32,000 nt of DNA, taken from assembly GCA_026625185.1 (NCBI GenBank), contig CP113000.1, positions 1,245,622 through 1,277,621 of the forward strand, given 5' to 3'. Each line of letters starts with the position of its first letter. Within the stretch, counting starts at the first letter, position 1. The notes beneath the pieces are model-generated. The model saw only the letters and a program-made list of their open reading frames with translations, did not search any database and was not told the DNA's origin. This DNA comes from Thermodesulfobacteriota bacterium (GTDB lineage: Bacteria; Desulfobacterota; WTBG01; JAGOGO01). Below are positions 5,535-28,299 of the stretch, in pieces. The translations under genes and the position numbers were made by a program.

Positions 5535-5538
5535 CTTC

Positions 5539-6252: not shown

Positions 6253-6256
6253 TGAC

Positions 6257-7410: not shown

Positions 7411-7546
7411 GATTTATTTTAAAGAAACTGATATTATAACTGGTTGCATCAAAACAGAAAATACGATATTTTTTATATTTGTTTTTCAGTCAAGCAGGAG
7501 AAAGGCGACTACTTTTGTAAGAGCTTTAAATGTAGGAGAAAATCTA

Positions 7547-9600
<2,054 letters not shown>

Positions 9601-9621
9601 TGGGGTTTAGGAGGGATTATA

Positions 9622-10821
9622 ATGGCCATAAAGTATATAAAATATATTGACAAAATAAACTTGAAGGGTAAAAGGGTTCTGATTCGAGTGGACTTGAATG
9701 TGCCCCTCGATAAAAACAAGAATATTACCGATGGTAATCGGATTCAGAGCGTCTTACCCACGATTAACTACTCCATAAAACAAGATGCTAAAATCATCCT
9801 CATGTCTCATTTAGGTCGTCCCAAGGGCAAGCCAGATACTGAATTTAGCCTTTTACCGGTGGCCAAATACCTTTGTGAGGTCTTGCAGAAAAAAGTCATC
9901 CTGGCGCCGGATTGTATTGGTCAGGAGGTGGAAAAGCTTGTTTCTGAGATGCAGCCACGCGATATCCTCCTCTTAGAAAACTTAAGATTCCACCCGGAAG
10001 AGGAAAAAAACGACCGGGAGTTTGGCCGCAAACTGGCAAACCTTGCCGATGTTTATATTAATGACGCTTTTGGCACTGCCCACCGTGCCCATGCCTCAAA
10101 TGTAGCAGTGGTCGAATTTTTCAAGGAGTTTGGGGGTGGGTTTCTGATGAAAAACGAGATCGAATATTTTCGAAAAGCAATGGTTGAACCTGCGCGTCCC
10201 CTGGTTGCTATCATGGGGGGGGCAAAGGTATCTGAAAAACTTGATGCCTTGGAAAACTTGATCCAGAAAGTGGATAAAATTTTCATCGGTGGGGGGATGG
10301 CTTATACCTTTCTTAAGGCCCTGGGATATGACGTAGGAAAATCTCTGGTTGAAGGGGATTTGATTGAAACCGCAAAAATGATTATGGCAAAAGCGAAAGA
10401 ACGAAAGGTAGCACTCCTTCTTCCGGTTGATTGTGTTGCCGCCGATCAGCTTGATTCCCGCGCGTCTACAAAAATCACCTCGATTCAGGAGATCCCTCCG
10501 GGATGGATGGGTCTGGATATCGGCCCGGCAACGCGAGTACTTTTTGCCGAATCGCTTGCAGAGGCCAAGACCATTGTCTGGAATGGTCCGATGGGGGTTT
10601 TTGAGATGGAACCGTTCAGCAAGGGAACGTTCGCAATGGTGGAGGCTCTCGCGGAATCATCCGCCCTCACGATTGTGGGTGGTGGTGATACTGATGTGGC
10701 GGTGCACAAATTGAATGCAGCGGACAAGATTTCATATATTTCTACGGGCGGGGGGGCTTTTATCGAGATACTGAAAGGCAAACCTCTTCCATCGATCTCG
10801 GTCTTGGAAAGAACGGGCTGA
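9622..10821 (+). CDS. pgk: phosphoglycerate kinase
   Basis: RVDLNVP, MSHLGRPKG, NDAFGTAHRAHAS, GGGDT motifs. RBS AGGAGG lies upstream. Confidence 0.97.
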   Translation: MAIKYIKYIDKINLKGKRVLIRVDLNVPLDKNKNITDGNRIQSVLPTINYSIKQDAKIILMSHLGRPKGKPDTEFSLLPVAKYLCEVLQKKVILAPDCIGQEVEKLVSEMQPRDILLLENLRFHPEEEKNDREFGRKLANLADVYINDAFGTAHRAHASNVAVVEFFKEFGGGFLMKNEIEYFRKAMVEPARPLVAIMGGAKVSEKLDALENLIQKVDKIFIGGGMAYTFLKALGYDVGKSLVEGDLIETAKMIMAKAKERKVALLLPVDCVAADQLDSRASTKITSIQEIPPGWMGLDIGPATRVLFAESLAEAKTIVWNGPMGVFEMEPFSKGTFAMVEALAESSALTIVGGGDTDVAVHKLNAADKISYISTGGGAFIEILKGKPLPSISVLERTG

Positions 10822-10935
10822 AACCAAAACCAGGCGGTACAAGGGCAGAAGCCAACATTCAGAGAAGATGTTTTTACCCCGTTAGAAACCCGGTTAAATA
10901 TCAAATACCTAAAAGGGAGAAGAAGCGGGGGTTAA

Positions 10936-11712
10936 ATGACGAAAGGAAAACAAAGCATGAACCGAGTCTCTTTGATTGCCGGGAACTGGAAAATGTACAA
11001 AACCGTTCCTGAGGCGGTAGCAACCGCTGCTCAACTTAAAGAAGCAGTAAAAGACATCTCCGGACGAGAGATTGTGATTGCCCCCCCGTTCATTTCTCTC
11101 CATCCGGTGTCCCAGGTTATTAAAGGCTCAAACATTAATCTTTGTTCTCAAGATGTGTTCTGGGAAGAGGAAGGCGCTTTTACCGGCCAAATTTCTCCGG
11201 GCATGCTTCTCAGCGCCGGGTGCACGTATACCCTTATCGGTCACTCGGAGCGAAGGCAGTATTTTGGCGAGACCAATGAGACGGTGAACAAGAAGACTAA
11301 AAAAAGCATCGATCAAGGCCTGAAGGTTATCGTTTGCATTGGAGAGGCCCTGGAAGAGCGTGAAGCCGGGAAAACTTTTTCCGTTCTGGAAATTCAAATT
11401 TCCGAAGGGCTAAAGGGATTAACTCCTGTTCATATGGACAGTGTAGTCATCGCTTATGAACCGGTCTGGGCGATTGGTACCGGTAAAACAGCAACGGCTG
11501 CGCAAGCAGAACAAGCTCACCAGTTTATAAGGGGTAAGCTTAAAGAACAATTTGATACCGGCGTAGCTGAAAAAATCCGCATCCTTTACGGCGGAAGCGT
11601 TAAGCCGGATAATATTGACCAGTTGATGGCGGAGAAAAATATTGACGGTGTTTTGGTGGGGGGAGCTTCGCTTAAGGTGGACTCTTTTTCCCGGATTGTG
11701 AAATTCACCTAA
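10936..11712 (+). CDS. tpiA: triose-phosphate isomerase
   Basis: IAGNWKMY, IGHSERR, AYEPVWAIGTG, YGGSV motifs. An alternative start at ATG 10957 (MNRVSLIAGNWKM) gives the more typical N-terminus. Confidence 0.95.
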   Translation: MTKGKQSMNRVSLIAGNWKMYKTVPEAVATAAQLKEAVKDISGREIVIAPPFISLHPVSQVIKGSNINLCSQDVFWEEEGAFTGQISPGMLLSAGCTYTLIGHSERRQYFGETNETVNKKTKKSIDQGLKVIVCIGEALEEREAGKTFSVLEIQISEGLKGLTPVHMDSVVIAYEPVWAIGTGKTATAAQAEQAHQFIRGKLKEQFDTGVAEKIRILYGGSVKPDNIDQLMAEKNIDGVLVGGASLKVDSFSRIVKFT

Positions 11713-11851
11713 GATATATATTATTTCAATGTGTTATCGGTTACCGGGAATGGACATTGAGTAAATAAAAAATTCTTGATAAAATTTTTAAAAAACAATA
11801 TTATCCCGAACTTGAAAACCTGACATTTGAAGATAAAATGGAGAAATAATC

Positions 11852-12214
11852 ATGAGTACTGTTCTTACTATCATTCATATAACCGTTTGCATTGCTTTAA
11901 TTTGCATCGTGCTTCTCCAAAGCGGTAAAGGTGCAAGCCTGGGGGCTGCCTTTGGGGGAGCAACTCAGACTGTCTTTGGGGCTTCCGGCGGAGCGGGTTT
12001 TTTTGAAAAGCTCACTACCGCCATAGCCGTTATTTTTATGGTTACTTCCGTTCTCCTGACCTATATCTCGGCAAAAAGAGGCGGAGAGACGATTATGAAA
12101 CCAAAGGCCGCGCAAGAAGAAAAAGCGGTCCCCAAAATTCCCCCGGCTCCAGGCACAGGAGCCGGGCAAAAAGCACCAAGCTCTATGCCGGCAACTCCTG
12201 CTCCTCAAAAATAA
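11852..12214 (+). CDS. secG: preprotein translocase subunit SecG
   Basis: LLQSGKGASLGAAFGG...FGASG motif between two TM helices. The conserved tpiA-secG synteny is present. It has a Pro/Ala-rich C-terminal tail. Confidence 0.9.
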   Translation: MSTVLTIIHITVCIALICIVLLQSGKGASLGAAFGGATQTVFGASGGAGFFEKLTTAIAVIFMVTSVLLTYISAKRGGETIMKPKAAQEEKAVPKIPPAPGTGAGQKAPSSMPATPAPQK

Positions 12215-12231
12215 GCAGGGTACCTTATAAT

Positions 12232-12314
<83 letters not shown>

Positions 12315-12371
12315 CATTCCTTCCTTTGAATTTCAATGTGTTACAACTCTTAAGGTGGTAAAAATCCTTTG

Positions 12372-14554: not shown

Positions 14555-15277
14555 ATGATTCAGTTCGTCTTGGTGCATGGTGCGTGGCACGGGGGCTGGT
14601 GCTGGCGTCGTGTAGCCGATGTTCTCAGGGCTCGCGGGCACCGGGTTTTCGCGCCCAGCCTCACGGGAGTGGGGGATCGCGCGCATCTCTTCTCCAAAGA
14701 AATTTCAATGCAGACTCATGTGGACGACATCCTTTCCGTGGTTGAAACTGAGGAATTGAGGGACTTCGTTCTGGTTGGACATAGCTATGGAGGCTTCGTG
14801 ATCTCCGGAGTCGCTGACACACTCCGAGAGCGCGTGTCTCACTATGTTTACTTGGATGCTAGTGTTCCACCCGAAATGTCACCAGGCGCATCCTTCAGCT
14901 GGGCCGACTTTAATCCTCCCGAGGCACGTGAAGAACGATTGAAGTCGGTTCAAGAACAGGGTAAGGGTGCGGCACTCCCTCCACCTCCGCCCAGTGCATT
15001 CGCTGTGACCAACCCTGCGGACGTCGCCTGGCTGCAGCGGCAATTGCGGCCTATGCCGGTTGGGACCTATATCGGAGCCTTTACCTTCAAGAGCTCCGGG
15101 AGCAATGGATTGAAGCGCACCTACATTGCTTCAACCAAACCCCCCTATGCTTTGCTCGCCTCTACCCGTAACCGTATAAAGGGTGACCATACCTGGTCGT
15201 TCACGACAATCGAGGCAGGGCACGACTCAATGGTTACCGCCCCTGACGAGCTGGCTTCTTTGTTAATGGTGGCCTGA
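14555..15277 (+). CDS. alpha/beta hydrolase, SABP2 / methylesterase / hydroxynitrile-lyase-like subfamily
   Basis: N-terminal FVLVHGAWHGGWCW motif, nucleophile elbow GHSYGG, C-terminal GHDSM (catalytic His context). It is much more GC-rich than its flanks. Confidence 0.85.
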   Translation: MIQFVLVHGAWHGGWCWRRVADVLRARGHRVFAPSLTGVGDRAHLFSKEISMQTHVDDILSVVETEELRDFVLVGHSYGGFVISGVADTLRERVSHYVYLDASVPPEMSPGASFSWADFNPPEAREERLKSVQEQGKGAALPPPPPSAFAVTNPADVAWLQRQLRPMPVGTYIGAFTFKSSGSNGLKRTYIASTKPPYALLASTRNRIKGDHTWSFTTIEAGHDSMVTAPDELASLLMVA

Positions 15278-15454
15278 AACCCATCCTGTTGAGTCCGCCA
15301 TAGACCGGTATCAAACTTTTGCATGCAGCGTACCGGCCAACAGCGTCCCTTCGCGGTGCTGCTTGGACAGCCGCTGATTCAAGACCTTATACAGAAAAAA
15401 AAAGTGAATGCACATAAAATTAAAAAATAATTCTTAAAAATTTAGGAGGTAAAT

Positions 15455-16672
15455 ATGCTTGATTGCACTATCACCGTGGAATCCGGCGTTACCTGGATTA
15501 ATTTAAAAGGTCGTATTGACAGTATGACCTCACCGGAGATACAGCGGCAGATTAATGACCTCATTTTAGGGGGAGAAAGGCACTTAGTGGCTAACCTTGA
15601 GGAGATCAACTATATCAGCAGCGCAGGTTTACGCGTTTTTCTGGGAGCGCAGAAACAGCTCAAAAAGGTGGGAGGGGAGATTATTTTTTATAAAGTCTCG
15701 AGTTCAATATTTGACGTGTTTAAACTCGGGGCTTTTGATCAGATATTCCGTTTCGCGTCAACCAGAGAAGAAATTACCGGCGCACTTCATGCCGATAAAA
15801 CCTCTTTTCCTATTCGCTCAAAAGAGGTTGAGAAAATAGTATTTAACTATCTTGAAAAAAAAGCTGATCCTGGTTTCCTGAAGGTGGTGGGGTCTCAGGA
15901 AAATCTTGCTTGGGCAAAGTATATTGAGAAAGATGTGGTTACTATCAAATCAGAAGAACTCCAGTTCGGAACCGGTCTGGCTACTCTGGGTGATTGCTAC
16001 GGGGAATACAAGAATTTATTCGGCGAAGCAATGGTCATCAACCGAAACTTCTTTTTTTATCCGGCAGTTAAACGTCCGGCAGTTGATTTCATGCTTGCTG
16101 CCAACCAAGAATCCAGTCTTGAATACCGGTTTCTGCACGGCTTTGGATTCACTGGGTCCTATAAGTACGTTGTTTTATTTGAGAGTACGGAGGGCTTGGT
16201 AGAGCTGGAACGCCTGGTGAATGCTTTTTTTTCGATTTCCCAGGCGAATCTTTTGGGTTTTGTGATTCTCGGGGAAAGCAAAGGTCTCTGGGGAATGCAT
16301 TTAAAAAATAGCCCTATTTTTGAGAATCAACCTAAAAACGGCAAAGAGATTTTTGACCCGATAAACTTTGCTGACTGGGTAAACTTTCCTGTGGAGGCGG
16401 GAGATATCAACCGGATTATTGCTGCAACCGGGATTGCGATCAAGGAAGTGAGCAGGGAGCGCGGTGAAGTACAAAGCCTTTTGTCCAAGGGAGCCTGTTT
16501 TCATGTTCATGGGGCAGTATTTTCTCAGGAGCCGCTCAGTAAGAAAATAGAGCAGTTTGAAAACGAGCTTACCCGGGTTCTGACCGAACTTGAGGTTTAT
16601 AAGGTGCAGCATATACTCGGCAAGACCAGATTCAGCAGCGGAATGGTGGGGCTCGTTGAGCTTAGTTCATGA
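15455..16672 (+). CDS. STAS-domain (anti-sigma-factor-antagonist-like) protein fused to an uncharacterised domain of about 290 aa
   Basis: Residues 1 to about 110 are SpoIIAA/RsbV-like (INLKGRIDS...LEEINYISSAGLRVFLGAQKQLKKVGGEIIFYKVSSSIFDVFKLGAFDQIF). I recognise no motif in the rest. A strong RBS AGGAGG lies 6 nt upstream. It is the first gene of the ABC operon. Confidence 0.8.
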   Translation: MLDCTITVESGVTWINLKGRIDSMTSPEIQRQINDLILGGERHLVANLEEINYISSAGLRVFLGAQKQLKKVGGEIIFYKVSSSIFDVFKLGAFDQIFRFASTREEITGALHADKTSFPIRSKEVEKIVFNYLEKKADPGFLKVVGSQENLAWAKYIEKDVVTIKSEELQFGTGLATLGDCYGEYKNLFGEAMVINRNFFFYPAVKRPAVDFMLAANQESSLEYRFLHGFGFTGSYKYVVLFESTEGLVELERLVNAFFSISQANLLGFVILGESKGLWGMHLKNSPIFENQPKNGKEIFDPINFADWVNFPVEAGDINRIIAATGIAIKEVSRERGEVQSLLSKGACFHVHGAVFSQEPLSKKIEQFENELTRVLTELEVYKVQHILGKTRFSSGMVGLVELSS

Positions 16673-16703
16673 TCAAATAGTTATATCTCGTTAGGGGTTT
16701 TCA

Positions 16704-19700
16704 ATGGAACTCTGGGTTGGTGCATTAAGTCTCGGTTTGTTATACGCCTTCATGACCATGGGGGTTTTCATCACCTTTCGCATTCATAATTTCCCTGACA
16801 TTACCGTGGACGGAAGCTTTACCTCAGGGGCGGCAATAATGGCGTTACTTATTGTCACCGGATTTAACCCATTTCTGGCCCTGGGGGCTGCCTTTATCAT
16901 CGGAGCAGTCGCGGGTTGCGCTACCGCTTTGATCAATACCCGTTTAAATGTCAATGGCCTCCTGGCTGGTATTTTGGTCATGACCGGTCTTTATTCTATT
17001 AACCTGCACATCATGGGCCGGTCAAATATACCTCTTCTCAACCAGACAACGGTATTTACTTATCTCTCTGGGCTAAATCCAGGACTACAGGGAGAGATCT
17101 GGACTGGTATCGTCCTCAGTTTGGTTATGGTCCTTTTCTGGCTTGTTGTTTCTTTGTTTTTTAAAACTGATTTTGGGATTGCCATGCGGATTACCGGTAA
17201 TAATCCCACCATGGCGGCGGCAAATGGTGTTAATGTCGGCAGAATGACTATCTTTGGGGTAGCTTTGGCAAACGGTCTGGTTGGTGTTTCCGGCGGCTTG
17301 GTTGCCCAATATCAGGGATTTGCCGACATTGGAATGGGAATTGGAACGGTAGTTATCGGGCTTGCGGCAGTAATCATCGGCGAGTCCATCTTGAGGTCCC
17401 ACTCCATGTACGCAAAAGTGTTAAGCGTGCTCATTGGATCGGTGATTTTCCGGCTAATGATTGCCATTGCGCTTTTTGTGGGCATGAACCCTATTGACCT
17501 TAAACTTCTCACCGCAGGTTTTGTCCTTATTACCCTTATTATTTCTAAAACTGTTGCGGGCCGGGAAAAGAGGAGGGGGGAACTTTTCGGAAAGGTAGCC
17601 GGTTTTTTTCAGGGTAAACGAGTTGCTTACGGTTTTACTGCCATCATCATTATTATTGCGGTTGCATGGTTTGGGTATAAAAATTTTTCCCAAAGATTAA
17701 TGACACCACAAAAAATTAATAAAATCAAGGTGGTGCAGCTTACTGATAATGGACTTTTAAATATAACCCGGGACAGTTTCGTTAAAGAAATGGAAAAAAT
17801 CGGTTATCAGGATGGGCAGAATTGCACCATTAGCCTGGAAAATGCTCATGGTGATCTGCCCACCGTCAACTCCATCATTGATAAATTTCTTCAGGAGAAG
17901 GCGGACATTATCGTCACCATTTCCACCGGATGTACCCAGGCAGCAATCAATAAGATCAAGGACCGGCCAATAGTTTTTGCTACGGTTGCCAATCCGTTTA
18001 TTATTGGTGCCGGAAAATCAGAAACTGACCATGTAGCTAACGTTACTGGTGTGTACGGCTCGGTTCCCATGGACAAAACTATGGAGGTGGTCAGAAAAAT
18101 CCTGCCGGGAAAGCTCGCCATTGGAGCCATCTGGGATTCAAGCCAGGCAAATTCAGTCTTCAATGCAGAAAATCTTAAAAAAGCAGCTCAAGCTTGTGAT
18201 GGGGTGAGTTTTGCGGGAACAACCATTACCAGCTCAGCGGAAGTATATGAGGGCGCCGTATCTTTGGTACAAAAGGGGATTGGCGCTTTTGTTTTGCCGC
18301 CCGACAACATTGTTTATTCAGCTTTTGAGTCGGTGATAAAAGCCGCCAGAACCAAAAACATCCCCGTCTTCACCAGTGATGTAGAAAGGCTTGCTGATGG
18401 CGCTCTTGGTGTGCTGGGATATGATTATGCTTTAAGCGGTATTCAGGCTGCCCATCTGGTTGACCGGGTGCTAAAAGGGGAAAAACCACGGGATATCCCT
18501 TTTGAGCGGTATAGAAAGCTTACTTTTGGGCTTAACCTGGAGGTGGCAAAAACAATTGGTATATCCATATCACCTGAAGTTATTGCTCAAGCTACCATAG
18601 TTCTCGGAGGGAGAGAGACCAAAAAGCTTAAACCTAAAATAGGCCTTGTTCAGTTTGCCTTTGAACCTAATGTGGAGCTCTGCAAGCAAGGAATTCTTAA
18701 AGCCCTGGCCGAAAATGATTACCGAGATAAGGATAACATCGAAATCATCTACAAAAATGCTCAGGCTGACTTCTCTCTGATTAATTCCATTATTCAGGAT
18801 TTCCTAAGAAGGAAGGTTGATATCATTGTCCCCCTTTCAACCCCGTGTGTGCAGTCGGCAGTCCAGTTTGCTGCCGGGAAAAAAGAAACTAAAGTTGTTT
18901 TTACCTACATATTTGATCCTTACCGGATAGGAGCGGCAAAAACTCCGACCGACCATGTTCCCACTATAACGGGCGTGGCCTGCTTTCCGCCGATAGAGGG
19001 GATGCTGAATTTAATAAAAGAGATTTTCCCGGACCGGAAAAAGGTGGGCATTGTCTGGAATAGCTCGGAGGCAAACTCGGAAGCAGTGCTCCTTAAGATA
19101 CGTACCCAGGCGGCTAAGACAGGTCTTGAGGTTATCGAGGCAACCGTGACCAGCCCGGCGGAGGTTCTGGAGGCAGCACGGTCTTTGGTGAATAAAAAGG
19201 CTCAGGTTTTTTTAAATGGCGGAGACAATACCCTTAATGTGAGCTTTGACAGTTTTGTAAAGGTTGCGGACGAGAACAAAATCCCCGTTTTTTCAGTAGA
19301 TTCAGAATTTATTGAAAAAGGTTCTTTTGCGGTTCTGGGGCCTGATTATTTTCAAACCGGTTATGAAGGAGGAAACTATTTGGCCAAGGTATTGGGTGGT
19401 GAAGATATCGCAAACCTCCCTATCGGTCAGACCAAAAAAACCCTTTTTATGATCAACTTGGATATTGCCCGCAAATATGGGTTTGAGGTAGATAATGCTA
19501 TCGTGAAAAGGGCGCAGAAAGTCATTGACAGCAGCGCTAAGGTTATTGCCGCAGGCCCGCCGGTGCGGAAAAAGAGACTGGCGCTTTTTCTTTTTAGTGA
19601 ATACATTTCAATGCGTGAAACTGCCCAAGGGGTTACGGAAGAGCTTGAGCGAAGCGGCATTTTGCGGCAGCATAATATAACTATGGACACAAAAAATTCT

Positions 19701-20462
19701 CAGAACGATTTTTATTTGGCCCAGTCAATTGCTCAGGATATTGTGCGGCAAAAATATGACTATATCATCACGCTTTCTACTCCTGCACTTCAGGTAATGG
19801 CAAATGCCAATAAAAAGATTCCCCATATCTTTGGCGCGGTGACTGATCCTTACCGCATGGGGGTGGCAAAAAGCAGCACTGACCACCTTCCGAACGTGAC
19901 CGGGGTGGCGACTCTTCAACCGGTGGAGACAACCATCCGGGTTATGCGGGAACTTTTTCCTCAGGCAAAAAAAGTAGGAATTATCTGGAACCCCGCGGAA
20001 GCCTGCTCCGAAGCCTGTACCTACAAAGTCCGGGACGCGGTTAAAAAATATAGCTTTGCTCTACAGGAAATAAATGTTGACAGCACCAGTGAGGTGCTTG
20101 ATGCGTTGAAGTCCCTCTTAAACCGGAGAATTGATCTGTTTCTGACCTCCGGTGACAATACGGTCATTATGGCGCTTGAGTCGGTTGCAAAATTGCTGAA
20201 GGAGCATAAAATTCCTTATTTTACCAACGTTCCCTCGGATGTTGACCGCGGTGCGTTTGTTTCCATCGGTGCAGACTATAATGAGGTGGGTAAGGAAACA
20301 GCCCGCATGGCAGAAAGGGTAATAAGCGGAGAAAACCCCCAGGGCATTCCCATTAAAAATTATGTTCCCGAAAAAATGGCAGTTAATCTCTCCCTGGCGG
20401 GAGAGTACGGGATCAAGATTCCGGAGCCATTGCTTAAAAAAGCCGCCTATATCAAGAGGTAG
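16704..20462 (+). CDS. ABC transporter permease (COG4120-type) fused through an extra TM helix to three tandem PF04392/COG2984-type substrate-binding domains
   Basis: The N-terminal 300 aa or so are polytopic (FPDITVDGSF, LAGILVMTGLYSINLHIMG). A linker TM follows (VAYGFTAIIIIIAVAWFGY). Then come three units of about 300 aa sharing DIIVxxST, DPxxxGxxKxxTDHxxNVTGV, KVGIIWNxxEANS and IPVF landmarks. Confidence 0.85.
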   Translation: MELWVGALSLGLLYAFMTMGVFITFRIHNFPDITVDGSFTSGAAIMALLIVTGFNPFLALGAAFIIGAVAGCATALINTRLNVNGLLAGILVMTGLYSINLHIMGRSNIPLLNQTTVFTYLSGLNPGLQGEIWTGIVLSLVMVLFWLVVSLFFKTDFGIAMRITGNNPTMAAANGVNVGRMTIFGVALANGLVGVSGGLVAQYQGFADIGMGIGTVVIGLAAVIIGESILRSHSMYAKVLSVLIGSVIFRLMIAIALFVGMNPIDLKLLTAGFVLITLIISKTVAGREKRRGELFGKVAGFFQGKRVAYGFTAIIIIIAVAWFGYKNFSQRLMTPQKINKIKVVQLTDNGLLNITRDSFVKEMEKIGYQDGQNCTISLENAHGDLPTVNSIIDKFLQEKADIIVTISTGCTQAAINKIKDRPIVFATVANPFIIGAGKSETDHVANVTGVYGSVPMDKTMEVVRKILPGKLAIGAIWDSSQANSVFNAENLKKAAQACDGVSFAGTTITSSAEVYEGAVSLVQKGIGAFVLPPDNIVYSAFESVIKAARTKNIPVFTSDVERLADGALGVLGYDYALSGIQAAHLVDRVLKGEKPRDIPFERYRKLTFGLNLEVAKTIGISISPEVIAQATIVLGGRETKKLKPKIGLVQFAFEPNVELCKQGILKALAENDYRDKDNIEIIYKNAQADFSLINSIIQDFLRRKVDIIVPLSTPCVQSAVQFAAGKKETKVVFTYIFDPYRIGAAKTPTDHVPTITGVACFPPIEGMLNLIKEIFPDRKKVGIVWNSSEANSEAVLLKIRTQAAKTGLEVIEATVTSPAEVLEAARSLVNKKAQVFLNGGDNTLNVSFDSFVKVADENKIPVFSVDSEFIEKGSFAVLGPDYFQTGYEGGNYLAKVLGGEDIANLPIGQTKKTLFMINLDIARKYGFEVDNAIVKRAQKVIDSSAKVIAAGPPVRKKRLALFLFSEYISMRETAQGVTEELERSGILRQHNITMDTKNSQNDFYLAQSIAQDIVRQKYDYIITLSTPALQVMANANKKIPHIFGAVTDPYRMGVAKSSTDHLPNVTGVATLQPVETTIRVMRELFPQAKKVGIIWNPAEACSEACTYKVRDAVKKYSFALQEINVDSTSEVLDALKSLLNRRIDLFLTSGDNTVIMALESVAKLLKEHKIPYFTNVPSDVDRGAFVSIGADYNEVGKETARMAERVISGENPQGIPIKNYVPEKMAVNLSLAGEYGIKIPEPLLKKAAYIKR

Positions 20463-20464
20463 CG

Positions 20465-21277
20465 ATGATAAAAATCATTGATGTTCACAAAAGGTTTAAC
20501 CCCGGCACTGCCAATGAGGTTTATGCTCTCCGGGGCATCAACCTGCATATCGAAGAAGGTGAGTTTGTTACCGTTATCGGAACCAATGGCTCAGGCAAAT
20601 CTACCCTGCTCAATGCACTCGCCGGCGCCTTCCTGCCTGATTCCGGCTCCATAGATATTGACGGTTTGGAGGTAACGGATAAAAAAGATTTTCAAAGGGC
20701 AAAGTATATTGCCCGGGTTTTTCAAAATCCTTTTATGGGAACTGCTCCCGAGATGACCATTGCGGAAAATCTTCACATGGCCTCCTTGAGATGCAAAAGA
20801 AGCTTTCCAAAAAGAGGATTAAACGCTGAACGTCTTAAGACTTACAGAGCGGAAGTTGCTCAGCTGGAGATGCAGCTGGAGGACCGTCTTCGTAATTTTA
20901 TCGGCACCCTCTCCGGCGGTCAGCGGCAGGCATTGACCCTGCTAATGGCGGTGATCACTGAGCCCAAGGTGCTCCTTCTGGATGAGCACACGGCAGCTTT
21001 GGATCCTAAGTCGGCAGCCCAGGTTATAAAGTTGACCAAAAAATTTATTGAAGGGACTAAGCTTACCACCCTTATGGTTACCCACAGCATGCAGCAAGCT
21101 CTCGACCTCGGTACCCGCACCATTATGATGAACAAAGGACAGATTATTGACGATATCCCTCAGAAAGAAAAACAGCGGATTACAGTTAATGACCTGTTGG
21201 ACAAATTCGCCGAGCTTCGCAAAGCCGAACAGTTAACCGACGAAATGATAGAGGAGTTAAGGCAAGGATATGTTTAA
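20465..21277 (+). CDS. ABC transporter ATP-binding protein (COG1101-type partner of the COG4120 permease)
   Basis: Walker A GTNGSGKST, signature LSGGQRQ, Walker B LLLDEHTAALD, H-loop VTHSM. The start is 2 nt after the permease stop. Confidence 0.92.
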   Translation: MIKIIDVHKRFNPGTANEVYALRGINLHIEEGEFVTVIGTNGSGKSTLLNALAGAFLPDSGSIDIDGLEVTDKKDFQRAKYIARVFQNPFMGTAPEMTIAENLHMASLRCKRSFPKRGLNAERLKTYRAEVAQLEMQLEDRLRNFIGTLSGGQRQALTLLMAVITEPKVLLLDEHTAALDPKSAAQVIKLTKKFIEGTKLTTLMVTHSMQQALDLGTRTIMMNKGQIIDDIPQKEKQRITVNDLLDKFAELRKAEQLTDEMIEELRQGYV

Positions 21278-21295
21278 TCCGGGTCAGTAAAATGA

Positions 21296-21706
21296 CTATT
21301 TTTTTATTTTCATGCAGAGTTTCAGAATATTCTTTCCTTCCTCGTGCCGGTAATCCAATTCATCCACCATCTTTCGGATCAGAAAAATCCCTAAGCCTCC
21401 GATTCTCCGCTCAAATAAATCACCGGATAAATTTGGACTATTTTCAGTTAAAGGATTGAAAGGATGGCCCCAGTCCTGGATGACAAAACAAAGTTTATCC
21501 TTATTCAGCCGGGTGCACTTTACTTCCACATCACCTTCTTGCGTGGGATAAGCATAATTAATAATATTGGTGAGAACCTCTTCCAGAACCAATTCTATCC
21601 TTGAAACCATTTCCTGGGTTATATGCCAGTCTTTTATTGTCTGAAGGACAAAAGAGCGAAAGGTTTCCAATGATTCCAATTTTGCCGGTAAACGTAAGTT
21701 ATCCAT
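21296..21706 (-). CDS. RsbW/SpoIIAB-like anti-sigma regulatory factor (HATPase_c serine kinase)
   Basis: 136 aa with N-box EEVLTNIINYAY, a DWGHPFNP segment and a GGLGIFLIRKMVDE G2-box. It is the last gene of the partner-switching operon. Confidence 0.85.
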   Translation of the reverse strand: MDNLRLPAKLESLETFRSFVLQTIKDWHITQEMVSRIELVLEEVLTNIINYAYPTQEGDVEVKCTRLNKDKLCFVIQDWGHPFNPLTENSPNLSGDLFERRIGGLGIFLIRKMVDELDYRHEEGKNILKLCMKIKK

Positions 21707-21752
21707 GCCTTAATCTTGAAGTCTAATTAAGCTGAGCTTTAAAAGTTAATAA

Positions 21753-23720
21753 TTAAGCATATTGAAAAAATCCTGGATAAGGAGAATCCTCTTTTATTCC
21801 TTTAAAGCGCAAAGCTAAAACCGTAATATCGTCCGCCTGGCTGACTTCTTTAGAAAAGCTTTTAACCGCATTAACCACATTATTTACGAGCTCTTCGGGA
21901 GAATTGTCGGGGTAGGTTCGGGTGGTCTCCAGTAGTCGTTGTTCGGAGTAGAGCTCTTTGTTTTCGTTTAGGGCTTCCGTTACTCCATCGGTATAAACCA
22001 GCAGCAAATCTCCTGAGCGAAGCTCAACTTTTTTCGTATCGTATTGGGATTCCTCAAAGACTCCCAGGAAGAATCCTTTCGGAAGTTCCAGCCATTCCGG
22101 TTCTTGACCGGCCCGAACAAGCAGCGGAGGATTATGGCCTGCATTGGAGTAAAGAAGTTCTCCGGATTTGAAATTCAAAATACCGCAAAAAACGGTGACG
22201 AACATATTTGATTCATTGTCTTGGCAGAGTTCCAAATTTACTCTTTTGAGGATGTCGGAAGGCTTAAGCTGAGGTTCAGCGGTTCCTTTCAGAAGAGTCT
22301 TTGTTACCGCCATAAAGAGAGCTGCCGGTATGCCTTTATCCGAGACATCACCCACAACAAAAAAAAGATGCTCTTCATCGAGGAGAAAGAAATCGTAAAG
22401 ATCACCGCCGATTTCTTTAGCGGGTTCAAGGGAAGCAAAAATTTCAAATTCAACCTTATCCGGAAACGGCGGAAAGTGCTTTGGAAGAAAACTCATCTGA
22501 ATGGTGCGGGCAATCTTGAGCTCGCTCTCAATCCGCTCCTTGGCTGCGGTGGTGGCGGCCAGGTTGGCAATGTATTCCTTAAGGGCAACTTTCATCTCCT
22601 TAAAAGATCGGGTTAGTTTTCCGATTTCATCATTTGCCCGCACCTCCGGTAGCTCAATATCCAGATTCCCCTTGACGATTTCCGAGGTTGATCGGGCAAG
22701 AGAACCGAGCGGCTTGGTAATAGTCCGGGAGAAGAAGGCAATGACGATACAGAGGAAGGTGAATCCAACCACGCCGATGAGAAGGACTTGTTTGCTTAAC
22801 CGGCTCACATCAGCAAATAGTTCTTCCTCCGGGAAGATCACTCCGAGGGACCAGCCGTTGGAAGGCAAGGGGGCATAATACATCCAGGATTTTTTTCCGG
22901 AGACAAAGTCTTGGAGAGGCACGAACCCCGGTTCGCCGGTGATCATTTTTCTCCCAACTTGGCGCAGGGTGGAGTCTTTTCTCGCTTCGGCAATACTGAA
23001 GATGCTTTCCTTCATGATCAATTGCTTTTCGGGGTGCGTGACCATGACCCCGTTTTGGGAGATCAAAAAAGCGTATCCGGTCTTATAGATTTTTACCGAA
23101 GATACAATATCCTTTAACCACATCAGGGAAATATCAGCAGTGACAACTCCCCGGAATTTATTTTTGCCGTCTATTTTTTTATAAAAGGGCACGGAATAAG
23201 TGGACATAATGATATTGCCGGCGCCTTCATCATAAAAGGGCTCGCTCCATACCGGGGAGTCAATTTCCTTGGGGATCTGAAACCAGTCGAGGTAAAAATA
23301 CCGGTAGGAGTCACTTCCCAAAAATGTTAAGATGATCTTTTCATTATTACGGTAATAATAAGGAGCAAAGTATAATAAAGTCGGATTAAAGGCGTACGGT
23401 TCAAAGGCAAAGGTTGAACCAAATATCTCCGGATTATTTGCAACCGCGCTTTGTACTAATTTCAAAAGATCTTGGCGTTGGTAGGGGTATTTTTCAATGA
23501 TGGAGGCTTGATTAAGCGGCACCTCTTCAACCGACCTGAGGACCGTCTCAATTTTATAAACGGTAGATAGGGTGAGGTTGCGGGCGTTTTCTTCAATGTT
23601 TTTTAGTAAAGTTTTTTTTGAATAATGGTAGTTATAAACGAAAGCCGCAACAAAGATGATGGTGGTGCTGGTTAAGATAAAGATAATGAGTTTAAAAGCG
23701 AGCCCTAAATTTTTAATCAT
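21753..23720 (-). CDS. membrane sensor phosphatase: TM, Cache-like periplasmic domain, TM, HAMP, PP2C (SpoIIE/RsbU family)
   Basis: Two TM helices flank about 280 aa containing YKTGYAFLISQNGVMVTHPE (Cache-like). HAMP segment is TKPLGSLARSTSEIVKGNLDIELP...IGKLTRSFKEM. PP2C motifs are ARTIQMSFLP, GGDLYDFF, VVGDVSDKGIPAALFMA, YTDGVTEA, DDITVLALRF. Confidence 0.88.
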   Translation of the reverse strand: MIKNLGLAFKLIIFILTSTTIIFVAAFVYNYHYSKKTLLKNIEENARNLTLSTVYKIETVLRSVEEVPLNQASIIEKYPYQRQDLLKLVQSAVANNPEIFGSTFAFEPYAFNPTLLYFAPYYYRNNEKIILTFLGSDSYRYFYLDWFQIPKEIDSPVWSEPFYDEGAGNIIMSTYSVPFYKKIDGKNKFRGVVTADISLMWLKDIVSSVKIYKTGYAFLISQNGVMVTHPEKQLIMKESIFSIAEARKDSTLRQVGRKMITGEPGFVPLQDFVSGKKSWMYYAPLPSNGWSLGVIFPEEELFADVSRLSKQVLLIGVVGFTFLCIVIAFFSRTITKPLGSLARSTSEIVKGNLDIELPEVRANDEIGKLTRSFKEMKVALKEYIANLAATTAAKERIESELKIARTIQMSFLPKHFPPFPDKVEFEIFASLEPAKEIGGDLYDFFLLDEEHLFFVVGDVSDKGIPAALFMAVTKTLLKGTAEPQLKPSDILKRVNLELCQDNESNMFVTVFCGILNFKSGELLYSNAGHNPPLLVRAGQEPEWLELPKGFFLGVFEESQYDTKKVELRSGDLLLVYTDGVTEALNENKELYSEQRLLETTRTYPDNSPEELVNNVVNAVKSFSKEVSQADDITVLALRFKGIKEDSPYPGFFQYA

Positions 23721-24696
23721 GGGATACGCAATCTATAAAAAAATCCGAGAAACTCGGGACAGCAGTGATTAAGCGATTTACCTTAAGCTCCTGAACAACG
23801 CGATTATAATCGCCGGCTTGAAGAGTTCCCAAAGGGACAGTATTACCGGACGGATTAATGATGTCTTTCATACGTTCCAGCATCCATTTCTGGTGAACCC
23901 GGTTCGTAGCGATATTGCCGTCCACTACATACTTCATAACAATATCGAGGGCCGGTTCGGGGTTATCGAAGGCGTACTCCCATCCTTCGAGGGATGCTTT
24001 CACAAAATCACGGCACAAGGCGGGATCATGGTCAAAGGTCTTTTTTAAACAGTAAATACCGTCTTCGGGAAAGTTTACGCTATATTCAGAAAGGAAAAAG
24101 GTCGTTAATTCAGTCGGATTTATACCGGAATTGATAATGGTATGGTACTCATTGTACCACATGGCGGACGCTACATCTACCCCGTTGCGTAAAAATAGGT
24201 TCAGGGTTGCGGACTGGGGAATAATGGTAACGTGAAGGTTGTGCTTTTTGAAAAATGCCTTGGGCTGGACCTGAAATTCACTTCCCCAGAGACCCACTTT
24301 CCTCCCGTTGATATCCCGGGGGGAGTATATGCCGCTTGACTTTTTCGCCACCAACATGAGGGATGATCGTTGGACAATTTGACCGATATTAACTATGGGG
24401 AGCCCCTGGGAGCGCTTTTGGATTCCGGTGGAGAGGAACATGGTTCCAAAATCCGCGCGTTTCTCCTTTAATAGCGCCGAAGGTGGGTAATCGGGGCCGC
24501 CACGTAAAATTTTTACCTCCAATCCGTGTTTCCGGTAAAATCCTTTCTCCTGGGCGACAAAGTAACCGGCAAACTGGGACTGAGGAACCCATTGGGGTAT
24601 AAAAGTCGTTTTTTTTAAACCCTTTTCGTTTGCCTGAGCCGCTATAGTTATCAATAAAAGCAAGGCAAAAAGAAAGAATATTTTAAATTTTAGCAC
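23713..24696 (-). CDS. periplasmic substrate-binding protein, NMT1/THI5-like (NitT/TauT-type SBP)
   Basis: Signal peptide MLKFKIFFLFALLLLITIAAQA and a QWVPQSQFAGYFVAQEKGFYRKHGLEVKI motif. Its stop overlaps the phosphatase start by 8 nt (ATGATTAA). Confidence 0.8.
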   Translation of the reverse strand: MLKFKIFFLFALLLLITIAAQANEKGLKKTTFIPQWVPQSQFAGYFVAQEKGFYRKHGLEVKILRGGPDYPPSALLKEKRADFGTMFLSTGIQKRSQGLPIVNIGQIVQRSSLMLVAKKSSGIYSPRDINGRKVGLWGSEFQVQPKAFFKKHNLHVTIIPQSATLNLFLRNGVDVASAMWYNEYHTIINSGINPTELTTFFLSEYSVNFPEDGIYCLKKTFDHDPALCRDFVKASLEGWEYAFDNPEPALDIVMKYVVDGNIATNRVHQKWMLERMKDIINPSGNTVPLGTLQAGDYNRVVQELKVNRLITAVPSFSDFFIDCVSHD

Positions 24697-24728
24697 CCAG
24701 CATCCTTCTGAAGCTTTTCAATTTTTTT

Positions 24729-25061
24729 TTAAATCTGTGACCGAGCAGATTCCACGGATTCAAAGATGGGGATAATAGAACGGAATCCGGAAATTTCGAA
24801 AACCTCCTTTACCATACCTTTAAGTCCGGCAATCAGAAGCTTTCCATCTTTTTCTTTAAGTTTTTTGGTTATCGTGAGGATGCTGCGAAGGCCGGAGCTG
24901 CTGATATAATCAAGCGCAGCAAAGTCAAGTATTAAAGCGTTATTTCCTTCAGCAATTAATGCGGCCATTTCTTTTTCAAACTCCGGTGAGGAAACAGCAT
25001 CCATCCTCCCTTTTAATGAAACCACTGCTGCCTCTTGTTCCCGTTTTTTTTCTATCTCCAT
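24729..25061 (-). CDS. STAS-domain anti-sigma-factor antagonist (RsbV/SpoIIAA-like)
   Basis: 110 aa: VSLKGRMDAVSSPEFEKEM...LDFAALDYISSSGLRSILTITKKLKEKDGKLLIAGLKGMVKEVFEISGF. The serine at the phospho-acceptor position is retained. Confidence 0.88.
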   Translation of the reverse strand: MEIEKKREQEAAVVSLKGRMDAVSSPEFEKEMAALIAEGNNALILDFAALDYISSSGLRSILTITKKLKEKDGKLLIAGLKGMVKEVFEISGFRSIIPIFESVESARSQI

Positions 25062-25160
25062 AATAGGCTTTCTAATTTAATGTGATTAGCGTTTTTTCGG
25101 AATTTATGCTGCTTTTTTATTTCTTGGTAACGATCCAAAAAATTCTTTTTTTGTCGATAT

Positions 25161-25189
25161 TTTTTTAACCTATTGGCGCGGGAAAGTCA
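25161..25189 (-). promoter_or_regulatory. candidate sigma70 promoter for the STAS-SBP-phosphatase-kinase operon
   Basis: On the minus strand: TTGACT (25189-25184), a 17-nt spacer, then TAAAAA (25166-25161), about 100 nt upstream of ATG 25061. Confidence 0.3.
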
Positions 25190-25199
25190 ATCCTATTGA

Positions 25200-25285
25200 T
25201 TTTCCTTATTAACCGAAACCCATAAGCGGAGTCCCTCCCAGGTCTTCTTTTCATTGGGTGTTTTTTCAAAAAGTCCTTTCTTCCC
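25200..25285 (+). repeat. intergenic repeat family, copy 1
   Basis: TTATTAAC (25205-25212), 12 nt, GCGGAGTCCCTCCCAGGTC (25225-25243), then TTTTTTCAAAAAGTCCT (to about 25276). It is collinear with copies 2 and 3. Confidence 0.6.
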
Positions 25286-25326
25286 TTAATGGTTATTCCT
25301 ATCATCCTTTCGTCTAATTTTAATTC

Positions 25327-25425
25327 CCCCTAATCACTCCATCACTAACCACTAATCCCTGCGCCTTCAGGGCGCACGCAATCCCTTCGGCCCTGCCAGG
25401 CCGGAGTGAGGAAGTGATAAAGGGG
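25327..25425. ncRNA. candidate structured RNA or element (GC-rich, three-way-junction-like); identity and strand unknown
   Basis: Outer stem ATCACTCCATCACT (25333-25346) pairs with AGTGAGGAAGTGAT (25405-25418) at 12 of 14 positions. It is flanked by CCCC/GGGG and encloses hairpins TGCGCC-TTCAG-GGCGCA (25360-25376) and CGGCC-CTGCCA-GGCCG (25388-25403). Confidence 0.25.
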
Positions 25426-25590: not shown

Positions 25591-26098
25591 GTGTTGATCG
25601 GTAGTTACTCACTTATAGAGTTTGATTTTGGCACAAAAACTATTGATGCCATAAGCCAATGGTTGCCAGGTTCGCCCCCGCTTTTTTTTGTTAATAAAAA
25701 TTCTCCTATGGATCGTTTACGATTTAGCGTTGACCATGAGTTAGGTCATATTGTAATGCATAAAGTTTGTGGGCTGGATATAAAAAAAAATGGGAAAACA
25801 AGCAGACGATTTCGCTTAAGAAATTCTTATGCCCGAAGACGCTATATCTCGTTTCTTAAATAATATTACCCTTCCGCAACTTGCTAATTTAAAATCATAT
25901 TGGAAAGTATTCATGGCAGCTCTTTTGCATCGTTCATATGATCTAAAAAAAATTACAACAAGGCAATATCAATACTTATGGATGCAAATGGGGAAAGCTG
26001 GCTATCGAACAAAGGAACCGCCTGAATTTGATATTCCCAAAGAAATACCTTCTTTATTAAAAGATCTAATTGAAACTTATCGCCAAAAATATGTTTGA
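25591..26098 (+). pseudogene. ImmA/IrrE-family zinc metallopeptidase (DUF955), N-terminally truncated, frameshifted, with an internal stop
   Basis: Contains RFSVDHELGHIVMH (the HExxH motif). The frame changes at an A9 run (25782-25790). The shifted frame reads MGKQADDFA-TAA(25817-25819)-EILMPEDAISRF, matching the family's ANxFAxxxLMP segment. The remainder continues as track ORF 25829-26098. Confidence 0.65.
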
Positions 26099-27556: not shown

Positions 27557-27909
27557 TCGCTTTTCTTAGCATAAATATGAGGACAAAACAAGTCATTATT
27601 ATATCCTCCTAAATTTCCAACTGCCTAAATTTCTTTATTTCTCTGCTCATTTTTAAGTACGGTTAATTCAAAAATAACATTCTCCACCAAGGGAGAGGAA
27701 CGATAAAAAAGTGTTATTAATTAAAAATTTACCTTTTTTCTAAGGCTTTTGTTCACTGGTAGTTTTTTTAAAGCTTATTTTTTCGTAAACCATTTTAGCG
27801 CTCCTGCGTCTTATATTTGAGAAAAGCAAAATAAATTAACCCATAAGAGATGCGTATCTGTACCTATTAAAAACTAATCCTCTAATAATTAAAAAAGGGT
27901 GTGATCATC

Positions 27910-28299
27910 ATGAGAAAAATATTAATTATTTTAATAGCCTTAAGCCTGGCAATACCCCTTTTAACCGCCACTCCCGCAAAGGCCGGTCATTGGAGTTTTG
28001 GCTTTTACTGGCCCGGATTCACAGTAGGGATAGGTGTTCCCCCGCCATATTATTATCCTGCACCACCTCCTCCAGGCTATTATTATCCTCCCGCCTACTA
28101 TTATGGGGAATACTGTAGGCCTGGGTATGGGTATTATGGTGGTTGCCGTCCCAGGGAATATTATGGCGGACCCAGGTATGGGAACAATGGCGACTACCAT
28201 AGGGAATATAACGGGGGACCCCGTGGGGAATATTATGGTAGAAACAATGGCAATGAGGATAATGGTGGGGAAAACTATGGTGGTGGATATCGGAGATAG
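27910..28299 (+). CDS. secreted Gly/Tyr/Pro-rich low-complexity protein (hypothetical)
   Basis: Start moved to ATG 27910, giving a classical signal peptide MRKILIILIALSLAIPLLTATPAKA. The mature part is PPPYYYPAPPPPGYYYPPAYYYGEYCRPGYGYYGGCRPREYYGGPRYG...GGGYRR. A terminator follows. Confidence 0.6.
   Translation: MRKILIILIALSLAIPLLTATPAKAGHWSFGFYWPGFTVGIGVPPPYYYPAPPPPGYYYPPAYYYGEYCRPGYGYYGGCRPREYYGGPRYGNNGDYHREYNGGPRGEYYGRNNGNEDNGGENYGGGYRR

Follow-up and report, generated by a model that had tools for sequence, protein, structure and literature searches.

A STAS fusion protein encoded in PF04392-type importer operons is a candidate phospho-switchable importer subunit and recurs beside partner-switch genes without a sigma factor

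The partner switches RsbU/RsbV/RsbW-SigB and SpoIIE/SpoIIAA/SpoIIAB-SigF each combine a PP2C phosphatase, a STAS antagonist with a conserved phosphoserine position, and a GHKL kinase with N, G1, and G2 boxes. The same three components are encoded in the 32,000-nucleotide stretch of a Thermodesulfobacteriota genome analyzed here (GenBank assembly GCA_026625185.1, contig CP113000.1, positions 1,245,622 to 1,277,621; hereafter the window), together with an ATP-binding cassette (ABC) importer and a two-domain STAS protein that we call STAS-X. Partner switches with a non-sigma output are known, among them SypE/SypA, BtrUVW, and HsbR/HsbA. The sigma-independent switches SiaABCD of Pseudomonas aeruginosa and HenR of Anabaena also have a non-sigma effector as output, and in Anabaena a STAS domain is fused to an effector enzyme, giving a STAS-glycosyltransferase under PP2C control (PMC13555669, PMC8256260). 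A STAS protein also acts on an ABC transporter: MlaB binds the ATPase MlaF via a surface centered on Thr52, the equivalent of the SpoIIAA phosphoserine, and the phosphomimetic substitution T52E weakens this binding; phosphoregulation of MlaB was only speculated by the authors, there being no evidence of MlaB phosphorylation in cells (bioRxiv 10.1101/2020.04.27.064196).

On balance, and with modest confidence, we favor the reading that STAS-X is a phospho-switchable regulatory subunit of an importer made of PF04392 substrate-binding domains (SBDs), a BPD_transp_2 permease, and a 270-residue ATPase, and that it is controlled by an RsbW-type kinase and a PP2C phosphatase. A sequence-only reading of the window had placed the seven genes concerned in two convergent sets; when the open reading frames (ORFs) were rechecked, all seven matched its coordinates exactly, and Pfam and NCBIfam bore out the domain identities of all seven proteins. 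The seven genes and the spacer between the two sets are as follows.

15455-16672, plus strand: STAS-X, 405 amino acids (aa); ORF with a Pfam STAS match at residues 7-106 (nucleotides 15473-15772), followed by about 300 aa without a hit
16704-20462, plus strand: permease fused to three SBDs, 1252 aa; BPD_transp_2 at residues 7-277 and three PF04392 ABC_sub_bind domains, 527.7 bits in total
20465-21277, plus strand: ABC ATPase, 270 aa; Pfam ABC_tran
21278-21295, no strand: spacer of 18 bp between the convergent stop codons, from the ORF coordinates
21296-21706, minus strand: RsbW-type GHKL serine kinase, 136 aa; HATPase_c_2 with E 1e-26, best NCBIfam and PDB match RsbW
21753-23720, minus strand: Cache-HAMP-PP2C membrane phosphatase, 655 aa; dCache/MCP-like PDC, HAMP, and SpoIIE-type PP2C with E 2.7e-56
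23713-24696, minus strand: NMT1/THI5-type periplasmic binding protein, 327 aa; NMT1 with E 8e-42, signal peptide
24729-25061, minus strand: small single-domain STAS protein, 110 aa; STAS with E 1e-23, TIGR00377 with 81 bits

The stop codons of the two sets face each other across the spacer. Gaps of 31 bp and 2 bp separate the permease-SBD gene from STAS-X and from the ATPase gene, respectively; on the minus strand the small STAS gene is followed after 32 bp by the NMT1 gene, whose stop overlaps the start of the phosphatase gene by 8 bp, and the kinase gene follows the latter after 46 bp. The three SBDs, the NMT1 protein (by its signal peptide), and the Cache domain were placed outside the cell by hydropathy and the positive-inside rule, and STAS-X, the ATPase, the kinase, and the small STAS protein were assigned as soluble and cytoplasmic by hydropathy and charge. 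Although the individual parts are all of known kinds, their combination, as far as we have found, is undescribed in three respects: the family of STAS fusions with an ALDC-like domain, its near-obligate place in a PF04392-type operon, and its recurrent pairing with switches that lack a sigma factor.

The place of STAS-X in the importer operon was surveyed at 80 STAS-X loci from species-representative genomes, with flanks of up to 10 kb, from Thermodesulfobacteriota, Aminicenantes/Acidobacteriota, Omnitrophota, Bacteroidota, Ignavibacteriota-like bacteria, Planctomycetota, Cloacimonadota, Synergistia, and others, including the cultured Syntrophorhabdus aromaticivorans and Desulfoferrobacter suflitae and a metagenome-assembled genome (MAG) assigned to Draconibacterium orientale. 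Of the 77 loci whose downstream sequence was long enough, 70 had a permease-SBD gene on the same strand and no more than 400 bp downstream of STAS-X, the median gap being 13 bp. Of the 52 loci with 6 kb or more of downstream sequence, 50 carried the ATPase gene. A second STAS-X subfamily, with only 21-28% identity and with a STAS start in 8 of 10 members sampled, gave the same picture in a different form. Its genes followed the order STAS-X, permease of about 310 aa, 270-aa ATPase in 11/11 loci, one to three genes for PF04392 substrate-binding proteins (SBPs) or for multidomain SBPs lay directly upstream of STAS-X in 10/11, and start and stop codons within these operons often overlapped or sat a few bp apart. 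The sequence-only reading had asked whether STAS-X co-occurs with COG4120/COG1101/COG2984-type transporters or is scattered among unrelated genes; the figures for both subfamilies answer in favor of linkage, which is near-obligate. As the position of STAS-X is kept across sequence divergence and across the change from fused to separate SBDs, we concluded that a transporter subunit is the best reading of this protein. Rearranged operons were also seen, with the order STAS-X, ATPase, permease in locus L042, about 2 kb inserted between STAS-X and the permease in L007, and 4-7 kb between the SBDs and the ATPase in L009, L013, and L058.

The permease-SBD protein of the window divides into four parts.

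16704-17681, plus strand: permease and extra transmembrane helix, residues 1-326; BPD_transp_2, hydropathy
17694-18623, plus strand: SBD1; PF04392
18624-19538, plus strand: SBD2; PF04392
19551-20459, plus strand: SBD3; PF04392

About nine transmembrane helices are followed by a K/R-rich loop and then by the extra helix (residues 307-325), which places the SBDs outside the membrane. In subfamily 1, 10 loci encoded a transporter with a single fused SBD, 30 with two, 9 with three, and 1 with four; three orthologous types of SBD were distinguished, of which the commonest combinations were 1-3, 1 alone, and 1-2-3 (loci L001-L091). In subfamily 1 they are C-terminal to the permease, attached via the extra transmembrane helix; in subfamily 2 they are separate multidomain SBPs or the products of several SBP genes. 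The ATPase carries a C-terminal extension of about 38 residues (residues 233-270, nucleotides 21162-21274) that is not covered by solved nucleotide-binding domains in sequence alignments. MlaF holds MlaB through a C-terminal extension, and by analogy that of the importer ATPase could be a docking element for STAS-X.

The three SBDs of the window protein are only about 30-38% identical to one another, and their closest PDB sequences were 6hni, 3lkv, and 3lft. The best NCBIfam match was NF041285 (TrpX), with 561.9 bits against a cut-off of 390, a score that is summed over three domains and does not establish specificity for Trp. The ligands of the three PF04392 proteins with solved structures are L-Trp, L-Tyr, and L-Phe (PMC10443332). 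From these matches we infer that the importer most likely takes up aromatic amino acids or aromatic compounds related to them. At some loci the operon lies among genes of other pathways: a subfamily-2 STAS-X operon (L081:778-5788) stands beside homogentisate-pathway genes (FAA hydrolase, HgmA, and a glyoxalase-family dioxygenase), and genes for thiamine pyrophosphate enzymes, CoA-transferases, or glycyl-radical enzymes flank the operons of L082 and L084. Such aromatic-catabolism neighbors fit aromatic substrates.

STAS-X homologs make up more than 400 clusters, are strikingly constant in length, about 405 aa, and are named in the sources only as "STAS domain-containing protein" or "anti-anti-sigma factor"; a protein identical to that of the window is recorded for a Thermodesulfobacteriota MAG. 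When the C-terminal 292 residues were used for an exhaustive search, 326 representative clusters were found, nearly all of them proteins of about 400 aa in which the match lay at about residues 120-400. Judging from these sequences, the X domain appears to exist essentially only as a STAS fusion. One protein of 549 aa (P0234) starts in the middle of a STAS domain and continues through a linker into a complete STAS-X at its end; we did not use it as a natural fusion of small STAS and STAS-X, as its first STAS domain is N-terminally truncated and it may be a gene-calling artifact. The residues and domain of interest in STAS-X, and the corresponding serine of the small STAS protein, are encoded at the following positions.

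15617-15619, plus strand: Ser55 codon of STAS-X; coordinates verified
15620-15622, plus strand: Ser56 codon, predicted phospho-acceptor of STAS-X; alignment with SpoIIAA, invariance in both subfamilies
24897-24899, minus strand: Ser55 codon of the small STAS protein, predicted phospho-acceptor; YISSSGL motif, homologous place
15800-16669, plus strand: X domain, residues ~116-405; ALDC/PTD012-like fold by Foldseek on models
16025-16027, plus strand: invariant E191 of X; alignment of both subfamilies
16502-16504, plus strand: invariant H350 of X; alignment of both subfamilies
16508-16510, plus strand: invariant H352 of X; alignment of both subfamilies
16610-16612, plus strand: invariant H386 of X; alignment of both subfamilies

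In the STAS part D22, S55, and S56 were invariant across both subfamilies, and the Ser-Ser pair was present in 75/75 loci examined. Ser56 of STAS-X (YISSAGL) aligned to the first Ser after Asp in the SpoIIAA motif MDSSGL (phmmer; 1auz, 1th8), which we take to be the phospho-acceptor position; the aligned position reads Ala in the 1TID sequence. The observation that both STAS proteins of the window keep a serine at the SpoIIAA/RsbV phosphorylation position, YISSAGL in STAS-X and YISSSGL in the small STAS protein, thus stood. An AlphaFold2 model of STAS-X had a predicted local distance difference test score (pLDDT) of 88.6 and a predicted template modeling score (pTM) of 0.77, and its STAS domain matched SpoIIAA/RsbV, superposing on SpoIIAA in the kinase complex (1th8_B) with a template modeling (TM) score of 0.88 (Foldseek).

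The part of STAS-X after the STAS domain had been left as an uncharacterized "X" in the sequence-only reading; it is indeed present, as about 300 aa, and is not featureless, having an ALDC/PTD012-like zinc fold and three invariant histidines. Foldseek searches with X of the window model matched 1xv2, 5yho, 4bt2, and 1xcr, the ALDC matches having E 3e-7 to 1e-5 and target TM 0.6-0.67. A subfamily-2 protein was modeled independently, with a separate alignment (pLDDT 87.8, pTM 0.85); the top match of this model was PTD012 (1xcr), a human protein whose PDB title reads "novel Zinc-containing fold," and the same ALDC series followed. Over both models the matches had E 3e-7 to 1e-4, target-normalized TM 0.6-0.73, and probability 1.00. 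As the independent subfamily-2 model gave the same ALDC/PTD012 matches, we regard this model-based fold assignment as robust. Besides E191 and the three histidines, G146, G174, G190, G326, and G396 were invariant in both subfamilies, and P203, D211, E274, and F356 nearly so. X shares with ALDC (PF03306) and human PTD012/C11orf54 a two-lobed beta-rich fold and an HxH motif with a third invariant His; it differs from these proteins in being fused to STAS and encoded within a transporter operon, and it has no detectable sequence homology to them. Neither a Pfam scan of 32 X domains nor a search of PDB sequences with an X profile, both at E up to 10, gave a hit, and hhalign of X against a verified ALDC alignment gave a probability of 0.08%, that is, no sequence homology. 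Membership of X in the ALDC family was rejected on these grounds. The third His lies 34 residues after the HxH motif in X and 11 residues after it in ALDC (H173, H175, and H186 in A4). Going by the models, X is probably a metal-binding domain whose ligand is a small carboxylate.

Such a fold could also mean that STAS-X is primarily an enzyme, in which X processes the imported substrate at the cytoplasmic face, for example by decarboxylation or hydrolysis, STAS tethers it there, and the partner switch tunes the enzyme rather than transport. In its fold X matches Zn-dependent ALDC and PTD012 significantly and reproducibly, three His and a Glu/Asp are invariant down to 21% identity, and aromatic catabolic genes such as the homogentisate pathway of L081 stand beside some operons. 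Against these points, X has no sequence homology to ALDC or any Pfam enzyme family, its His spacing is unlike that of ALDC, and it is almost never found without STAS; moreover, the STAS-X gene lies between SBP and permease genes with start and stop codons that overlap or sit close together, a tight coupling more typical of a stoichiometric subunit. We therefore regard a primarily enzymatic STAS-X as quite improbable, and return to the regulatory subunit.

RsbW, PP2C, or small-STAS homologs were found in 29 of the 80 STAS-X loci, and in 23 of these 29 the nearest lay within 500 bp of the operon edge. Expressed per 100 kb of flank, the rate for the nearest partner-switch gene was 35.3 in the first 500 bp versus 0.5-1.8 beyond, a 20- to 70-fold enrichment, and chance adjacency was rejected on this distance distribution. 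The orientations were shuffled, the partner-switch genes being upstream and co-directional, downstream, divergent, or convergent; these differing arrangements indicated selection for proximity and not shared ancestry. In Aminicenantes, a different phylum, locus L001 carried the seven genes of the window as one co-directional array, in the order small STAS, RsbW, NMT1, Cache-PP2C, STAS-X, permease-SBD, and ATPase, with successive gaps of 19, -4, 55, 59, 3, and 3 bp. As the gene set recurs across phyla, its presence in the window is not a chance arrangement. In L004 and L005 the ATPase gene abutted an NMT1 gene (gaps of -1 and +3 bp) that was followed by Cache-PP2C, and in Syntrophorhabdus (L037) STAS, RsbW, PP2C, STAS-X, permease, and ATPase genes were all on one strand. 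In L077 and L078 (Bacteroidota) a PP2C gene overlapped or abutted the STAS-X start (-4 and +1 bp) with no small STAS or RsbW gene within 10 kb. Partner-switch genes lay within 8 kb in 9/11 loci of subfamily 2, with varied sensor inputs (GAF-PP2C, Tll0287-like-PP2C, and a receiver-PP2C fed by NMT1 and a dCache-HAMP histidine kinase), and L082 and L083 had a kinase gene, with or without GAF-PP2C, and no small STAS gene. Across the loci the sensor inputs change (Cache-HAMP, GAF, receiver, Tll0287-like), and the STAS-X operon beside them does not. Because loci without a small STAS gene exist, STAS-X itself would be a substrate.

No sigma factor accompanied these genes. In the window, Pfam gave no sigma-factor match among ORFs of at least 110 aa, and phmmer with SigF, SigB, and RpoE gave none among ORFs of at least 120 aa, with a working positive control, in agreement with the claim that the window lacks a sigma factor gene. 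No sigma-70-family protein was found among 2,627 ORFs from 87 loci and the window (phmmer; the control query SigF found SigB with E 7e-39 and RpoE with E 5e-4), and none in 35 phosphatase-centered loci. The absence of a sigma factor accordingly extends to about 120 related loci.

The kinase of the window keeps the N-box E/N, DxG, and GxG motifs, as aligned to Bacillus subtilis RsbW (6m36). In the phosphatase the SpoIIE domain covers 190 of 192 profile positions and keeps the PPM metal-binding motifs GGD, GDVSDKG, TDG, and ADDIT; the best full-length NCBIfam match was SiaA, far below its cut-off. The phosphatase is laid out as follows.

23634-23690, minus strand: first transmembrane helix; hydropathy
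22794-23600, minus strand: periplasmic dCache domain; Pfam, topology
22731-22787, minus strand: second transmembrane helix; hydropathy
22578-22736, minus strand: HAMP domain; Pfam
21804-22376, minus strand: PP2C domain; Pfam, motifs

A reciprocal survey covered 80 metagenome loci centered on Cache-HAMP-PP2C orthologs (44-62% identity), which were searched with queries from both STAS-X subfamilies. NMT1 was present in 56 of these 80 loci, RsbW in 48, and small STAS in 48. The NMT1 gene and the dCache-HAMP sensor gene formed a conserved and often overlapping pair (21753-24696, minus strand; L084, L090, L092-L171), which was also kept where a histidine kinase takes the place of the PP2C as output domain of the sensor (L084, L090); the pair may accordingly be a Cache sensor module that depends on a binding protein, independent of output type.

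Several results weigh against our reading. STAS-X or transporter genes of either subfamily occurred in only 7 of the 80 phosphatase-centered loci; where each flank reached at least 6 kb the count was 2 of 22, and where it reached at least 3 kb, 5 of 34. The cassette of NMT1, Cache-PP2C, RsbW, and STAS is thus an autonomous module, usually unlinked to STAS-X, and since only 2/22 loci were linked it is not dedicated to STAS-X and may have another or an additional target. Conversely, 19 of 31 well-flanked STAS-X operons of subfamily 1 (about 60%) had no partner-switch gene within 8-10 kb, and five loci carried an orphan STAS-X with unrelated neighbors, among which no alternative conserved partner was found. 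The two gene sets of the window are convergent and hence not co-transcribed. The absence of sequence homology between X and ALDC and the different spacing of the third His, described above, count against the metal-site part of the reading. The idea that the seven genes form one dedicated system was not upheld. The co-occurrence of the two operons in related genomes held in part: partner-switch genes are enriched at the operon edge and L001 has the same seven genes, but most subfamily-1 operons lack such neighbors and the reciprocal linkage is rare. STAS-X is genuinely, but only facultatively, coupled to partner switches, and the seven genes do not make up a single indivisible system.

These same results could be taken to mean that the window holds two independent neighboring systems. 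The output of the cassette would then lie elsewhere, as a sigma factor or effector in trans or as a small STAS protein acting on another target; STAS-X would be a constitutive subunit whose Ser-Ser pair is structural, and adjacency would reflect shared regulation or clustering. The cassette occurred without STAS-X in 20 of the 22 well-flanked loci, and clustering of all ORFs from the 35 longest phosphatase-centered loci gave no recurrent neighbor other than its own four genes, and no sigma factor; together with the many subfamily-1 operons that have no partner-switch gene nearby and the convergent arrangement in the window, this is what independent systems would show. Independence does not readily account for the strong enrichment at the operon edge, which involves several non-orthologous types with different sensor domains, nor for the PP2C genes that overlap or abut STAS-X where small STAS is absent (L077, L078), the kinase genes without small STAS next to STAS-X operons (L082, L083), the co-directional seven-gene array in another phylum (L001), or the lack of a sigma factor in any locus searched. 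The co-location rate of about 9-15% in the reciprocal survey lies far above a rough chance estimate of about 0.5% (20 kb of a genome of about 4 Mb). Weighing these, we consider two unconnected systems unlikely.

For the regulatory subunit that we favor, we propose the following mechanism, in which the phosphorylation of STAS-X, its docking on the ATPase, and the direction and sign of control are what we infer. STAS-X would be a dedicated cytoplasmic subunit or regulator of the importer, and its SpoIIAA-like STAS domain would act as a phospho-switch at Ser56, written by the RsbW-type kinase and erased by the PP2C. An extracellular ligand sensed by the co-translated NMT1 protein and the dCache domain would set the activity of the PP2C. 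The kinase would phosphorylate Ser56 of STAS-X and Ser55 of the small STAS protein, the latter being an alternative partner or substrate that competes with STAS-X for the kinase, so that STAS-X and the transporter would take the place of the sigma factor in the partner switch. By analogy with MlaB and MlaF, transport would be permitted or stabilized by STAS-X docked in its unphosphorylated form on the ATPase, and phosphorylation of Ser56 would break the contact; the sign of control could equally be the reverse. A further input, from the cytoplasm, may come through X, for instance as feedback by the imported substrate; binding of a metal and a ligand by X belongs to the same proposal. In its fullest form, which we put forward tentatively and at somewhat less than even confidence, STAS-X would be the output of a sigma-less partner switch, a phospho-controlled clutch on the importer ATPase with a cytoplasmic metal or ligand input, and the SBP-plus-Cache phosphatase would gate uptake post-translationally within seconds.

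The signal might instead run in the opposite direction. Signaling "trigger transporters" are known in other systems, and here the transporter would be the sensor, STAS-X would report transport or, via X, cytoplasmic substrate to the kinase in competition with the small STAS protein, and the output would be the small STAS once freed or phosphorylated. The potential ligand or metal site of STAS-X would suit such a role, as would the presence of two STAS proteins with one kinase; in most genomes the cassette has no adjacent output gene, and the small STAS protein may be its effector. However, many STAS-X operons have a PP2C or kinase gene but no small STAS gene, which would leave no output, and STAS-X is kept in the roughly 60% of operons without a nearby signaling partner. 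We judge this reverse flow to be rather improbable, more so than two independent systems, and retain STAS-X as a regulatory subunit of the importer.

Scans of 15200-25400 for promoters and terminators gave counts equal to those of shuffled controls and were uninformative on operon structure, and the terminator signal in the 18-bp spacer region was not above shuffled controls. Rfam found neither a riboswitch nor a T-box in the window. The rest of the window is housekeeping in character (PHO4, a DegP-like protease, a GldG-like ABC-2 system, 3-dehydroquinate synthase II (DHQS-II), gap-pgk-tpi-secG, tRNA-Leu, pyrF, and others). At 7409-12315 (plus strand) the DHQS-II, of archaeal type (PF01959), lies directly upstream of gap-pgk-tpi-secG and tRNA-Leu(GAG); an alternative-pathway gene of aromatic amino acid biosynthesis therefore shares the window with the putative aromatic amino acid importer. 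At 2888-7195 (minus strand) is a separate four-gene ABC-2 system, with an ATPase, an ABC-2 permease, a GldG-like ABC_transp_aux protein with DUF7088, and a DUF4340 protein, that appears unrelated to STAS-X and its importer. Two overlapping short ORFs of 90 and 89 aa at 25591-26098 (plus strand) fall where GC content is low (31-37% between 25 and 28 kb); the first has a HELGH metallopeptidase-like motif and no Pfam hit, and the pair look like a frameshifted remnant of an ImmA/IrrE-type gene. A further ORF of 132 aa at 27901-28299 (plus strand) has a signal peptide, an extremely Gly/Tyr/Pro-rich low-complexity mature part, and no Pfam hit.

Compared with known systems, the genes described here combine features that are otherwise found apart. 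Unlike the Rsb and SpoII switches, they include no sigma factor, in the window or in about 120 loci, and they include a second, two-domain STAS protein tied to a transporter. We know of no ABC transporter controlled by SiaABCD, HenR, SypE/SypA, BtrUVW, or HsbR/HsbA, and of no ALDC-like domain in any of them. TrpXYZ-type importers (COG2984/COG4120/COG1101, PF04392) bring together the same three component families, a PF04392 SBP, a BPD_transp_2 permease, and an ABC ATPase; the importer described here differs from them in having one to four SBDs fused to the permease (subfamily 1) or multidomain SBPs (subfamily 2) and a STAS-X gene in the operon. In GlnPQ and OpuA, which have fused or multiple SBDs, these are covalently linked to the membrane domain, as in the permease-SBD protein of the window, and in the trans-inhibited importers MetNI and ModBC cytoplasmic regulatory domains bind substrate. 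MetNI and ModBC have been named as regulated transporters in the MlaB study (bioRxiv 10.1101/2020.04.27.064196). In contrast to all four, the importer considered here belongs to a different transporter family, carries three tandem SBDs C-terminal to BPD_transp_2 after an extra transmembrane helix, and has as its putative regulator a separate STAS fusion. Literature searches turned up no account of an ABC transporter under a partner switch, of a STAS-regulated PF04392 transporter, or of a STAS/ALDC fusion.

The closest parallel is MlaB-MlaF (MlaFEDB), in which, as with STAS-X, a STAS protein is encoded with an ABC transporter; binding of STAS-X to the ATPase would extend the analogy, and MlaB chains were among the Foldseek matches of the STAS domain. 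MlaB, however, is a minimal STAS protein that lacks the last strand and helix and has no second domain, whereas STAS-X is a full-length SpoIIAA-like STAS domain fused to a 290-aa domain, with TM 0.88 to SpoIIAA versus about 0.75 to MlaB. Mla is an MCE-type lipid transporter, whereas the STAS-X importer is an SBD-dependent BPD_transp_2 and PF04392 system with kinase and phosphatase genes alongside. Few bacterial ABC importers are known to be controlled post-translationally, and with the present genes such an importer would join the few non-sigma outputs known for partner switches. A large unannotated protein family, present in many anaerobe phyla, gains a function-linked context, and X is defined as a new domain with a zinc-enzyme-like fold, which opens an enzyme or ligand-sensor role. 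With a built-in, predicted phosphorylatable STAS subunit, and with kinase, phosphatase, and sensor encoded alongside in many genomes, the importer makes STAS phosphoregulation directly testable, and cultured hosts exist (Syntrophorhabdus aromaticivorans UI, Desulfoferrobacter suflitae DRH4, and Draconibacterium). If our reading is true, this would be, as far as we have found, the first ABC importer under a partner-switching cascade, and a natural example of the phosphoregulation that has been speculated for MlaB.

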